Below are positions 23,471-39,684 of a DNA stretch of 43,731 bases, piece after piece (position 1 is the stretch's first letter; every line of letters begins with the position of its first letter). The stretch is from Escherichia phage vB_EcoP_ACG-C91. The DNA is taken from the sequence record NC_019403.1; one strand, written 5' to 3'. The translations under genes were made by a program, and so were the position numbers. The notes beneath the pieces are model-generated. The model had not been told where the DNA came from and searched no databases. It saw only the letters and a program-made list of their open reading frames with translations.

Positions 23471-24676
23471 ATGTCTACACCGAATACTCTGACCAACGTT
23501 GCAGTCTCCGCTTCCGGTGAGGTAGACAGCCTGCTCATTGAGAAATTCAATGGTAAGGTAAATGAGCAGTACCTGAAAGGTGAGAACATCATGTCCTACT
23601 TCGATGTTCAGACTGTTACTGGTACTAACACGGTAAGCAACAAATACTTGGGTGAAACAGAGTTGCAGGTTTTGGCACCGGGTCAGTCTCCGGCTGCAAC
23701 CTCTACTCAGGCCGATAAAAACCAGCTGGTAATTGATGCCACTGTTATTGCTCGTAACACCGTTGCACACCTGCATGATGTACAGGGTGATATTGACAGC
23801 CTGAAACCTAAGCTGGCTACCAACCAAGCTAAGCAGCTTAAGAAGATGGAAGATGAAATGCTGATTCAGCAGATGCTGCTGGGTGGTATTGCTAACACTC
23901 AGGCTAAGCGTACTAACCCTCGTGTGAAAGGTCATGGCTTCTCTGTCAACGTGGAGGTCAATGAAAGCGAAGCACTGGTTAACCCGCAGTATGTAATGGC
24001 GGCTGTAGAGTTTGCTCTTGAGCAGCAGCTTGAGCAGGAAGTAGACATCTCTGATGTAGCTATCCTGATGCCGTGGCGCTACTTCAACGTACTACGTGAT
24101 GCAGACCGTATTGTTGATAAGAGCTACACCATTAGCCAGTCTGGTGCTACCATTCAAGGCTTTGTGCTTTCTTCTTACAACTGCCCTGTTATCCCGTCTA
24201 ACCGCTTCCCGAAATACTCTCAAAGCCAGAAACATCACCTGCTGTCCAATGAAGACAACGGTTATCGTTATGACCCGACCGCAGAGATGAATGGTGCTAT
24301 CGCTGTACTGTTCACAGCTGACGCTCTGCTTGTGGGTCGTTCTATTGATGTAACCGGTGATATCTTCTATGAGAAGAAAGAGAAGACCTACTACATTGAT
24401 ACTTTCATGTCTGAAGGTGCAATCCCTGATCGCTGGGAAGCAGTGTCTGTTGTGACAACTAAGCGTAACACATCTACTGGGGCTGCTGAGAGTACTGGTG
24501 GAGCACAGCACACTCAGGTTCTGAACCGTGCACAGCGCAAAGCTGTCTACGTCAAGAATGCTGCTCCGGCAGGTGCTGCCGCTGCTGCTAGCCTGTCTGC
24601 TGAAGACTTGGTTGCTGCTGTCCGTGCTGTAATGGCAAATGACATTAAGCCGACTGCAATGAAACCTATTGAGTAA
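23471..24676 (+). CDS. Major capsid protein
   Basis: 401 aa; strong promoter + TAAGGAGG RBS upstream and strong terminator downstream; position equals T7 gene 10. Confidence 0.9.
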   Translation: MSTPNTLTNVAVSASGEVDSLLIEKFNGKVNEQYLKGENIMSYFDVQTVTGTNTVSNKYLGETELQVLAPGQSPAATSTQADKNQLVIDATVIARNTVAHLHDVQGDIDSLKPKLATNQAKQLKKMEDEMLIQQMLLGGIANTQAKRTNPRVKGHGFSVNVEVNESEALVNPQYVMAAVEFALEQQLEQEVDISDVAILMPWRYFNVLRDADRIVDKSYTISQSGATIQGFVLSSYNCPVIPSNRFPKYSQSQKHHLLSNEDNGYRYDPTAEMNGAIAVLFTADALLVGRSIDVTGDIFYEKKEKTYYIDTFMSEGAIPDRWEAVSVVTTKRNTSTGAAESTGGAQHTQVLNRAQRKAVYVKNAAPAGAAAAASLSAEDLVAAVRAVMANDIKPTAMKPIE

Positions 24677-36384: not shown

Positions 36385-36684
36385 ATGAGCGTACACAATA
36401 AACATGCAGCTACAGAGGATGAAGTTGGCATTCTGCATGGTGCTATTACCAAAATCTTCAATAAGAAAGCACAGGCAATACTGGACACTATAGAGGGGGA
36501 CCCCGATGCAGCATTGCATTTAGTATCTGGTAAAGATATTGGTGCTATGTGTAAGTGGGTTCTAGATAACGGCATCACTGCTACACCTGCTGCACAGCAG
36601 GAAGAGTCCAAGTTATCTAAGCGCCTCAAGGCTATCCGAGAGGCATCCAGTGGTAAGAGCATCCAATTCACTAAGGAGGATTGA
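36385..36684 (+). CDS. Terminase small subunit (putative)
   Basis: 99 aa directly upstream of and overlapping large terminase; GGGAGG RBS. Confidence 0.6.
   Translation: MSVHNKHAATEDEVGILHGAITKIFNKKAQAILDTIEGDPDAALHLVSGKDIGAMCKWVLDNGITATPAAQQEESKLSKRLKAIREASSGKSIQFTKED
36470..36492 (+). promoter_or_regulatory. Promoter-like sequence inside small-terminase ORF (ACTGGACACTATAGAGGG)
   Basis: Matches the downstream 15 nt of consensus; upstream part diverged. Confidence 0.35.
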
Positions 36685-38582
36685 TGGCTAAGGCAAGAGA
36701 ATCACAAGCAGAGGCTCTTGCCAGATGGGAGATGTTACAGGAGTTACAGCAGACCTTTCCTTACACAGCAGAAGGTTTGCTTCTCTTTGCAGATACAGTT
36801 ATCCATAACTTGATTGCAGGCAACCCTCATCTGATTCGTATGCAGGCCGATATATTAAAGTTCTTATTCTATGGACATAAGTATCGCCTCATCGAAGCGC
36901 CTCGTGGTATTGCTAAGACAACACTATCAGCAATCTATACAGTATTCCGTATCATCCATGAGCCACATAAACGTATCATGGTTGTATCCCAAAACGCCAA
37001 GCGAGCAGAGGAAATTGCAGGTTGGGTAGTGAAAATCTTCCGTGGCCTAGACTTCCTTGAGTTTATGCTACCGGACATATACGCTGGCGACCGTGCATCC
37101 GTCAAAGCATTTGAGATTCACTACACGTTACGCGGCAGCGATAAGTCACCTTCTGTATCCTGTTACTCTATCGAAGCAGGTATGCAGGGTGCTCGTGCTG
37201 ATATTATTCTAGCAGATGACGTAGAATCGATGCAGAATGCTCGTACAGCAGCAGGTCGTGCCTTGCTTGAGGAATTAACTAAGGAATTTGAATCTATCAA
37301 CCAGTTTGGTGATATTATCTACCTTGGGACACCACAGAATGTAAACTCTATCTACAATAACTTGCCTGCCCGTGGATACTCTGTTCGTATCTGGACGGCA
37401 CGTTATCCTTCAGTAGAACAGGAGCAATGTTATGGTGACTTCCTTGCACCAATGATTGTTCAAGATATGAAGGATAACCCAGCACTTCGCTCTGGCTACG
37501 GTTTGGATGGTAACAGTGGTGCACCTTGCGCACCTGAGATGTATGATGACGAAGTGTTGATTGAGAAGGAAATTTCTCAAGGTGCTGCTAAGTTCCAGCT
37601 TCAGTTTATGCTGAACACTCGCATGATGGATGCTGACAGATACCCACTTCGTCTAAACAATCTAATCTTTACTTCGTTCGGTACAGAGGAAGTCCCTGTG
37701 ATGCCTACGTGGAGTAATGATTCTATTAATATCATTGGCGATGCCCCTAAGTATGGTAACAAGCCTACAGACTTTATGTATAGACCTGTAGCCCGTCCTT
37801 ACGAATGGGGTGCTGTTACCCGTAAGATTATGTATATTGACCCTGCGGGTGGTGGTAAGAACGGGGATGAAACGGGTGTGGCTATCGTCTTCCTGCACGG
37901 CACATTCATTTATGTGTATCAGTGCTTTGGTGTGCCGGGAGGATACCGCGAATCGTCCCTGAATCGCATTGTGCAGGCCGCAAAGCAGGCGGGTGTTAAA
38001 GAGGTATTCATAGAGAAAAACTTCGGCCATGGCGCGTTTGAGGCCGTAATTAAGCCGTACTTTGAGCGAGAGTGGCCTGTGACTCTGGAAGAGGATTACG
38101 CCACCGGACAGAAAGAGTTGCGTATCATTGAAACACTAGAGCCACTAATGGCGGCCCACAGGCTCATCTTCAACTCAGAGATGGTCAAGTCTGATTTTGA
38201 GTCGGTACAGCACTATCCGCTTGAACTACGCATGTCATACAGCCTTTTCAATCAAATGTCGAACATCACGATTGAGAAGAACAGCCTACGACACGATGAC
38301 CGCTTAGACGCTCTGTATGGCGCTATACGGCAATTAACTTCTCAGATAGACTATGACGAGGTTACACGGATTAATCGCCTCAGAGCGCAGGAGATGCGCG
38401 ATTACATCCATGCTATGAACACACCTCACCTCCGTAGGGCAATGCTCTATGGAGATTATGGCACTGAGCGAAGAGTAACCAACACTTCCGTGGCTATGCA
38501 GCAAAGAGTATACGGTCAGAATTACAGGAGTAAATCGGCAAGCAGAAATACACTTTCTGCAAGGATTTCAAGGACTTATTAA
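36684..38582 (+). CDS. Terminase large subunit (DNA maturase, T7 gp19-like)
   Basis: 632 aa; Walker A-like PRGIAKTT; ATG 36684 with AAGGAGG RBS. Confidence 0.9.
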   Translation: MAKARESQAEALARWEMLQELQQTFPYTAEGLLLFADTVIHNLIAGNPHLIRMQADILKFLFYGHKYRLIEAPRGIAKTTLSAIYTVFRIIHEPHKRIMVVSQNAKRAEEIAGWVVKIFRGLDFLEFMLPDIYAGDRASVKAFEIHYTLRGSDKSPSVSCYSIEAGMQGARADIILADDVESMQNARTAAGRALLEELTKEFESINQFGDIIYLGTPQNVNSIYNNLPARGYSVRIWTARYPSVEQEQCYGDFLAPMIVQDMKDNPALRSGYGLDGNSGAPCAPEMYDDEVLIEKEISQGAAKFQLQFMLNTRMMDADRYPLRLNNLIFTSFGTEEVPVMPTWSNDSINIIGDAPKYGNKPTDFMYRPVARPYEWGAVTRKIMYIDPAGGGKNGDETGVAIVFLHGTFIYVYQCFGVPGGYRESSLNRIVQAAKQAGVKEVFIEKNFGHGAFEAVIKPYFEREWPVTLEEDYATGQKELRIIETLEPLMAAHRLIFNSEMVKSDFESVQHYPLELRMSYSLFNQMSNITIEKNSLRHDDRLDALYGAIRQLTSQIDYDEVTRINRLRAQEMRDYIHAMNTPHLRRAMLYGDYGTERRVTNTSVAMQQRVYGQNYRSKSASRNTLSARISRTY

Positions 38583-38601
38583 TTACCGGACACTATAGAA
38601 G
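38582..38601 (+). promoter_or_regulatory. Phage-RNAP promoter immediately after terminase stop
   Basis: AATTACCGGACACTATAGAAG, one mismatch from consensus. Confidence 0.7.
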
Positions 38602-38738
38602 GAAGGCCCAGATAATAAGAGAAATAACAAGGATAATATAGGTTAACCTAGGTTATATAGGTATTCCTTAGTATGGGTGTACTCCTGTACACCCTATTCC
38701 TTACTTCCTTACTATACTTACATAATAGGAGAGAGAGA

Positions 38739-39017
38739 ATGTCTAATAGTTATAGTACACAACCTCTTACAGGTAAGTCTGCTCGTAAGCAGATACAACC
38801 TGTTAGTGAAGCCCTGATGCTTCCTGTAGTTTACGGGGACACTGTTGAGAAGAAAGGTGATGTTATTAATGATGCCACCAAATCAGGTAAGCAGAAAGGG
38901 GCCATGGTGTGTCTTGATACACATGATAACCTGGTTATTGCTATCGCAGTTGATGGCAAAGAAGATTCCAATTGGTTGACAGTTAATAAAGCGGTCACTA
39001 CTATTACCCCAGTTTAA
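38739..39017 (+). CDS. Hypothetical protein (92 aa), paralog of the next gene
   Basis: ATG 38739 with AGGAGAG RBS; shares MSN start, SGKQKG(A/S)MV and IAIA motifs with ORF 39030. Confidence 0.65.
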   Translation: MSNSYSTQPLTGKSARKQIQPVSEALMLPVVYGDTVEKKGDVINDATKSGKQKGAMVCLDTHDNLVIAIAVDGKEDSNWLTVNKAVTTITPV

Positions 39018-39029
39018 GAGGAGAATTAC

Positions 39030-39347
39030 ATGTCTAATTATGGAGACGCAGATACTGTTACGGGTCAGGCTTTTCGAGTAAAAACTGTACAAACAACTGC
39101 AACGGCAATTCCTTTGCCTATTGTTGCTGAAGCAGACCTTAAGAAGAAAGATCACCCTATCAACATTAAACACCTATCTGGTAAACAGAAAGGCTCCATG
39201 GTTGCTGTAGAGAAAGCAGGCAACCCCTTGTACATCGCTATTGCACGTGGTAGTGAACCTACTGACCCTTGGGATGCAACCGCTATGGAGTCGACCCCTG
39301 TAACCCCTAAGGGCTTAATTGTAAAAGATGAGGTCAATAGTGCTTAA
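39030..39347 (+). CDS. Hypothetical protein (105 aa), paralog of the previous gene
   Basis: ORF track; AAGAGGAG RBS. Confidence 0.65.
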   Translation: MSNYGDADTVTGQAFRVKTVQTTATAIPLPIVAEADLKKKDHPINIKHLSGKQKGSMVAVEKAGNPLYIAIARGSEPTDPWDATAMESTPVTPKGLIVKDEVNSA

Positions 39348-39684
39348 CAAGTACTTCAAGCGTAAAGAGTTTGCTTGCCGTTGTGGGTGCGGTACATCCA
39401 CTGTTGATGCTGAGTTATTACAGGTAGTCACAGATGTACGTGAGCATTTTGGCGTACCTGTAGTTATCACTTCTGGTCATCGCTGTGCTAAGCACAACGC
39501 CAACGTAGGTGGAGCTAAGAACTCCATGCATCTTACAGGTAAGGCTGCTGATATTAAGGTACAAGGTATTACACCGTATCGTGTATGGTCTTACCTAACA
39601 GCACGATACCCTAATAGATATGGAATTGGGTCTTACCAAAACTTCACTCACATTGATGTACGAGATGGGTGTGCGCGATGGTAA
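39328..39684 (+). CDS. Endolysin, peptidase M15 family (L-alanyl-D-glutamate peptidase-like)
   Basis: SGHRCAKHNANVGGAKNSMHLTGKAADI...THIDVR: zinc-binding H/D/H signature of M15 peptidases; start may be GTG 39340. Confidence 0.85.
   Translation: MRSIVLNKYFKRKEFACRCGCGTSTVDAELLQVVTDVREHFGVPVVITSGHRCAKHNANVGGAKNSMHLTGKAADIKVQGITPYRVWSYLTARYPNRYGIGSYQNFTHIDVRDGCARW

Follow-up and report, generated by a model that had tools for sequence, protein, structure and literature searches.

We are inclined, on balance, to regard the products of two small genes of Escherichia phage vB_EcoP_ACG-C91 as late, abundant and probably trimeric virion-surface proteins that sit on the capsid as decoration or cement proteins. 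Such genes have been catalogued since the genomes of K1E, K1-5 and SP6, and a virion role has already been stated for their orthologs in Klebsiella phage Kp7; what appears to be new is the family-wide picture, with a mis-annotation, split, fused and display architectures, a fold that may resemble that of a trimerization domain and a common post-terminase decoration slot. The initial annotation of this DNA had called the function unknown, which was overstated, since one GenBank record and one preprint already annotate the orthologs as minor capsid proteins. Among the functions that it had offered, that of a minor virion or decoration protein is favored by the mass spectrometry of Kp7 virions, by fusions to immunoglobulin (Ig), knob and head-fiber modules in relatives, and by synteny with Pectobacterium phage ΦM1.

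All coordinates refer to the window, i.e., the whole stretch of 43,731 nucleotides (NC_019403.1) that was analyzed (Table 1). The DNA at 38583-39347 is 94-95% identical to that of Vectrevirus Escherichia phages, including K1E (~94%) and vB_EcoP_B/C/D. Judged from these identities and from the gene order, the window belongs to Vectrevirus and the ORFs at 38739-39017 and 39030-39347 correspond to K1E gp41 and gp42, respectively. The gene order is that of K1E genes 40-47, with the large terminase followed by the two small genes, a Peptidase_M15 endolysin, holin, spanin, a 111-aa adaptor remnant and an 811-aa endosialidase; the initial annotation was right in assigning both genes to the late region after the terminase gene, and the lysis cassette follows them. 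In the K1E reference (L001, 1856-4500) a homing-endonuclease gene (40.5) has been inserted into the terminase gene and divides it into 40A and 40B; the copy in the window is intact. The endolysin gene overlaps the 3' end of the gp42-type gene and probably starts at GTG 39340, as K1E gp43 does; the mechanical ORF begins at ATG 39328.

Table 1. Features of the post-terminase region in the window (aa, amino acids).
Feature	Coordinates	Strand	Basis
Large terminase subunit, 633 aa, intact	36681..38582	+	ORF; K1E 40A/40B at the same place
Late promoter of the phage RNA polymerase (SP6/K1E type), AATTACCGGACACTATA followed by GAAGGA	38581..38603	+	Exact GACACTATAGAAG match at 38589-38601
Hairpin GGGTGTAC-TCCT-GTACACCC, perfect 8-bp stem, then pyrimidine-rich tail	38675..38694	+	Terminator-like match
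gp41-type gene, 92 aa	38739..39017	+	97% aa identity to K1E gp41; phrog_2725 E=1.9e-40; Kp7_45 reciprocal best match
gp42-type gene, 105 aa	39030..39347	+	85% aa identity to K1E gp42; phrog_2725 E=4.6e-49; Kp7_46 reciprocal best match
Peptidase_M15_3 endolysin	39340..39684	+	Pfam PF08291 E=1.2e-32; K1E gp43 = 114 aa

Both ORFs were found on the plus strand at the positions given in the initial annotation, together with the motifs from which it had proposed a tandem duplication, namely the MSN start, SGKQKGAMV / SGKQKGSMV, and IAIA. Strong Shine-Dalgarno sequences (GGAG, 7 nt upstream of ATG 38739, and GAGGAG, 6 nt upstream of ATG 39030), about 90 homolog clusters for each gene at 90% identity, and dN/dS values of 0.28 (gp41) and 0.15 (gp42) against phage CC1, at a dS of ~1, establish both as real genes; the dN/dS values point to purifying selection on each of them. 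Ahead of gp41 (38727-38741), its Shine-Dalgarno sequence and start codon are separated by a (GA)n run that differs in length between the window (GGAGAGAGAGAATG) and K1E (GGAGAGAGAGAGAGAGAGAATG) and could be a slippage-prone tract that changes translation efficiency.

The two proteins share 37% identity across 93 columns (BLASTP, E=7e-13), and their Smith-Waterman score of 118 lies far above that of shuffled controls (27.1 +/- 5.0, z=18; maximum 58 in 5000 shuffles). Thirteen columns are invariant in 71 homologs of both types (M1, T11, G12, R16, K18, P30, S50-G51-K52-Q53, M57, A72 and W81), and every invariant or nearly invariant column of the family signature, TG...(R/K).K ... P.V ... IN ... 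SGKxxG ... A.G ... W ... TP, is present in both (alignments A1 and A2). The paralogy therefore stands, but not as a local or recent event, since SP6 and Kp7 both have a separate ortholog of gp41 and of gp42; in SP6, as in Kp7, gp41 and gp42 pair with gp41 and gp42 of the window, respectively. The duplication is thus an ancient one, and the gp41 and gp42 lineages are older than the divergence of Vectrevirus, Zindervirus and the Kp7 lineage.

The length of 105 aa is peculiar to gp42 of the window, its relatives all having ~95 aa. Residues 1-95 are conserved, and the final 10 are a window-specific read-through extension: within 39310-39347 there is one extra base relative to K1E (CCTAAGGGCTTAA versus CCTGCGGCTTAA), the usual TAA is read through, and the new stop overlaps the endolysin start. 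All 92 homolog clusters span just 89-91% of the window protein, without its tail. The extra base may reflect strain variation or an error in sequencing.

Transcription of both genes would start from the late promoter in Table 1, which the initial annotation had placed at about 38582 and which is borne out by the sequence. It opens one base past the first base of the terminase stop codon and carries one of 12 plus-strand copies of the promoter consensus ATTTACTGGACACTATAGAAG; the search returned 13 matches versus 1.2 expected, and the 12 on the plus strand have a longer consensus in common. K1E, CC1 and SP6 have the promoter conserved at the equivalent position. By analogy with the convention for SP6 promoters, G38598 would be the first transcribed base. 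The start GAAGG(G/A)AGG occurs otherwise only in the late promoter before the major capsid protein gene (23408) and in the copy before the tailspike genes (40267), and the likeness to the major capsid promoter suggests high late expression of gp41 and gp42. The major capsid protein itself (ORF 23471-24676, 401 aa) is 73% identical to its Kp7 counterpart of 363 aa, which aligns to residues 1-362 only and leaves a C-terminal extension of ~39 residues without a counterpart in Kp7.

A hairpin lies between the late promoter and gp41, and hairpins occupy the equivalent position in the loci L002, L018 and L021. Those of SP6 (GGGAGGTA/TCC/TACCTCCC) and Kp7 (GGGTACTCT/ACA/GAGTACCC) differ in sequence from that of the window, which indicates that the stem has been maintained through changes on both sides. 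The equivalent hairpin of Vibrio phage phiA318 is annotated as terminator Tphi-2, and an Rfam scan of the 5' UTR gave no family match. It could serve as an mRNA stabilizer, a pause site, an attenuator or a weak terminator. On its 5' side, at 38610-38672, the leader contains repeated TATAGG(T/A)...CCTAGG and AGGTATTCCTTAG-like units, which occur at the same place in K1E, CC1, SP6 and Kp7.

Both proteins belong to phrog_2725, a family of ~90 aa, with matches covering residues 1-92 of gp41 and 1-104 of gp42, and both match our own profile A2 (E=4e-32 and 7e-36, respectively). A tblastn search located the family in 189 GenBank phage records, all of Autographiviridae, at one to three places per record; the hosts include Escherichia, Klebsiella, Salmonella, Proteus, Vibrio, Erwinia, Pseudomonas, Pectobacterium and Aeromonas. 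The profile search detected 207 members among 1.84 billion representative proteins, and the best 150 of these comprise 94 single-domain proteins, 36-42 chains with three tandem domains and 11 in which an N-terminal family domain is joined to another partner. No Pfam or NCBIfam model matches either protein. The sequence search of the PDB with each protein and two profiles gave nothing meaningful (best PloI4, E=0.7, and a transaminase, E=1.6), and the solved capsid decoration proteins (lambda gpD, T4 Soc/Hoc, phage L Dec and alpha-claw) showed no likeness in sequence or fold to gp41 or gp42.

The link to the virion comes from Kp7 (Molineuxvirinae, ON148527), where the large terminase gene is followed by Kp7_45 (88 aa), Kp7_46 (88 aa), Kp7_47 (178 aa, Ig) and the endolysin gene. 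All three small proteins are annotated in GenBank as minor capsid proteins, gp47 “with Ig-domain”, and match the family HMM with E values from 1e-21 to 1e-30. The pairs gp41/Kp7_45 (45%, 1.5e-16) and gp42/Kp7_46 (48%, 1.7e-17) are reciprocal best BLASTP matches. Kp7 differs from the window in its third, Ig-bearing paralog, and the paired proteins are only 45-48% identical. According to the preprint, gp45, gp46 and gp47 were identified by mass spectrometry of purified-virion bands in a silver-stained SDS-PAGE gel; the label “capsid” is a prediction there, and the mass spectrometry places the proteins in virions only (bioRxiv 10.1101/2024.05.19.594906). The Kp7 proteins are the only family members with such evidence from virions. 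The PDB copy searched contains no structure of Kp7 gp45-gp47. The direct orthologs in K1E, K1-5 and SP6 (gp41 and gp42, in SP6 also gp42.3) bear the RefSeq name “acetyl-CoA acetyltransferase”; K1E gp41/gp42 have the same position, promoter and 5'-UTR hairpin as the genes of the window, and SP6 differs in the third copy, the truncated gp42.3, which the window lacks. For these three phages the literature searched, with the 2007 cryo-EM paper lying outside it, contained no usable virion proteomics and no report of capsid decoration.

A survey of copy number in relatives, which the initial annotation had suggested, found one to three tandem genes or one fused three-domain chain. It covered 12 genomes, namely K1E, SP6, CC1, Kp7, F4M1D, phiA318, Vp670, Era103, Achelous and three uncultured contigs with a fused three-domain gene. 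The family gene or genes lie directly 3' of a T7-type large terminase gene in all 12, as they do in the window. Short genes alone occur once in phiA318 and Vp670, twice in K1E and the window, and three times in SP6; a short and a long paralog are present in Era103 and Achelous, two short ones and a long one in CC1, Kp7 and F4M1D, and three fused domains in the uncultured contigs. With a single gene in phiA318 and Vp670 and two in K1E and the window, a strict 1:1:1 heterotrimer is not general, and the single-copy phages show that mixed assembly is not obligatory. Since the tblastn search against GenBank phages returned split genes only, no isolated phage has the fused form. In L015 (9887-10807), L017 (9822-10763) and L003 (2790-3479), long paralogs of 229-313 aa follow short or fused family genes; their C-terminal domains have no Pfam match and are candidates for new virion-surface binding modules.

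In ΦM1 the same slot after the large terminase gene is occupied by the solved decoration proteins alpha-claw and alpha-paw (PDB 8VB0), so that at least one further lineage uses the slot for genes of head decoration. ΦM1 belongs to the same virus family, and its pair consists of a short bare paralog and a longer one with an outward fiber; a combination of short and long paralogs is also seen in Era103, Achelous, CC1 and Kp7. The ΦM1 proteins differ in being helix-turn-helix four-helix bundles that form dimers at two-fold axes, and the ΦM1 genome contains no member of the gp41/gp42 family. The likeness is one of position and function, not homology. In the phiKMV-like phage Ar-KM, gp55 and gp54 follow the same logic of a short decoration protein plus a spike, and their place in the genome may be comparable; a homology of the decoration proteins of ΦM1 and Ar-KM to our family was considered and rejected, given the helical dimers and the missing family member in ΦM1. 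The post-terminase slot may be a general “decoration gene” locus of Autographiviridae that has been filled by unrelated families in different lineages.

The family domain is always N-terminal when it is fused, and its partners are an Ig domain (Ig_3, 2.5e-8, in the protein P0267; by annotation in Kp7_47), a tail-needle knob of the Sf6 type (PF16532; E=1.7e-30 and 5e-43), the segment that ends the phi29 head fiber at its C-terminus (PF11133, 26.5 bits versus a cut-off of 24.6) and, among BFVD entries, an SGNH esterase from Pseudomonas phage BUCT553. All of these are extracellular modules of virion surfaces. The Sf6 knob and the phi29 head fiber are both trimeric. Matches of P0267 to siphovirus tail proteins came through the Ig domain alone and were discarded. 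In the fused chains the best match of a repeat is the repeat at the same position in 63 of 69 cases, which means that the three positions date far back and cannot be swapped; the order of the split genes is colinear with that of the repeats only in part, repeat 1 being gp41-like in 11 of 23 fusions.

The AlphaFold2 model of gp41, based on a diverse alignment of 86 sequences, has a pLDDT of 87 (>90 at residues 31-80), with residues 1-28 nearly devoid of regular secondary structure, followed by a strand (30-32), a helix (33-37), a 3-10 turn (42-44) and strands at 56-60, 65-70 and 79-82. In the gp42 model, which is based on a shallow alignment, the same elements are predicted more weakly (pLDDT 67). 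A Foldseek search of the PDB gave no match with E<1. The predicted fold may resemble the unit of the NC1 trimerization domain of multiplexins (collagen XV/XVIII), a resemblance that would agree with the existence of single chains of three domains. These three-domain chains and the trimeric fusion partners suggest a trimeric state for gp41 and gp42.

From these observations we infer a capsid location, a co-assembly of gp41 with gp42, a role of the N-terminal arms and a binding site, as follows. Both proteins would be produced late and abundantly from their own phage promoter, which would also serve the lysis genes downstream. Each would begin with a basic N-terminal arm that is flexible, spans ~28 residues and contains the motif TG-x3-(R/K)-x-K, followed by a compact core of a strand, a helix, a 3-10 turn and three strands bearing the invariant signature N...SGK..G...A.G...W...TP. 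The cores would join in threes as homo- or hetero-trimers, the same unit being formed elsewhere by one three-domain chain. The trimers would occupy the outer face of the T=7 capsid, most probably its three-fold or quasi-three-fold sites, with the arms extending over adjacent major capsid proteins and the C-termini pointing outward. In relatives the C-terminus carries Ig, knob, head-fiber or esterase modules, and the two bare copies of the window would act as cement or plain decoration. The proposed mode is that of lambda gpD, phage L Dec and phi29 gp8.5, small trimers at three-fold or quasi-three-fold sites with N-terminal arms on the major capsid protein and possibly an outward fiber. A hetero-trimer of gp41 and gp42 would then correspond, in split form, to the three-domain single chains of uncultured relatives. 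The heads of K1E, K1-5 and SP6 have long been regarded as bare and T7-like. We put forward only tentatively that they bear an unrecognized modular trimeric decoration with an NC1-like fold new to capsids, in which gp41 and gp42 form hetero-trimers or occupy separate quasi-equivalent sites and the C-terminus serves for display.

A serious rival, although we consider it rather unlikely, is that gp41 and gp42 reside instead on the tail or neck, as a trimeric collar, whisker or fiber base attached close to the portal, adaptor (gp37) or nozzle, a module that in relatives would be tipped with receptor-binding or esterase domains. The Sf6 tail-needle knob and SGNH esterase partners are commoner on tail fibers than on heads, one relative in BFVD is annotated as “tail fiber protein”, and the mass spectrometry of Kp7 assigns no position within the virion. 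The Kp7 authors, however, group gp45-gp47 with the capsid proteins, and the visible stained bands in their gel suggest many copies. The Ig domain and the phi29 head-fiber segment, classic modules of head surfaces, are partners as well, and capsid decoration genes occupy the same slot in ΦM1. A further point against a tail or neck location is that the densities seen in the tails of K1E and SP6 have been attributed to products of other genes. The capsid surface is thus favored by the annotation of the Kp7 proteins, the Ig and head-fiber partners, the ΦM1 synteny and a promoter like that of the major capsid gene.

It is improbable that both are non-structural late proteins, such as regulators of lysis, assembly chaperones or anti-defense factors, with an incidental presence in virions. 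The promoter in common with the lysis cassette (endolysin, holin and spanin) and the overlap of the gp42 stop with the endolysin start would fit such a role. PHROGs assigns the lysis category to the neighboring genes but not to gp41 or gp42. A lysis or anti-defense accessory, the other function named in the initial annotation, finds no support: neither sequence has a membrane segment, signal peptide or hydrophobic stretch, PADLOC, like Pfam and NCBIfam, returned no match, and the Kp7 preprint reports the orthologs from purified virions. A cytoplasmic regulator would hardly be expected in fusions to Ig, knob and head-fiber modules, and in phiA318 and in the genome L013 the family gene is away from the endolysin gene.

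There is hardly any chance that gp41 and gp42 are acetyl-CoA acetyltransferases (thiolases), a reading that follows from the name carried by phrog_2725 and many RefSeq records: thiolases have an N- and a C-terminal domain with a catalytic Cys, His and Cys in ~390 aa, versus 92 and 105 aa here, no thiolase model of Pfam or NCBIfam matches even at E<=1, gp42 has no cysteine at all and hence no catalytic one, and the predicted fold is a beta/alpha core of ~60 residues. With size, domain matches, cysteine content and predicted fold all against it, the enzyme name is wrong, and its removal would put right a mistake now widespread in RefSeq and PHROGs: family members occur in ~190 phage records, and many of them are labeled “acetyl-CoA acetyltransferase”.

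If the assignment of gp41 and gp42 to the capsid surface is true, a component would be added to the heads of well-studied podoviruses that serve in work on the K1 capsule and in phage therapy. A C-terminus exposed on the head would make both proteins ready display sites on SP6/K1E-type phages, comparable to lambda gpD and T4 Soc/Hoc. The family, which has no solved structure, is also a structural target because of its unusual combination of split paralogs, a fused three-domain chain and display fusions.

A hybrid gene (P0140, 95 aa) was found directly 3' of the terminase gene in two separate metagenome assemblies (L019 1632-1919 and L020 1023-1310). Its first 56 residues are of the gp41 type and the remainder is of the gp42 type, with the junction at the common SGKQKGAMV motif. 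An assembly artefact in low-coverage contigs is also possible; the gene looks like the product of an unequal recombination between the tandem paralogs that reduced two genes to one.
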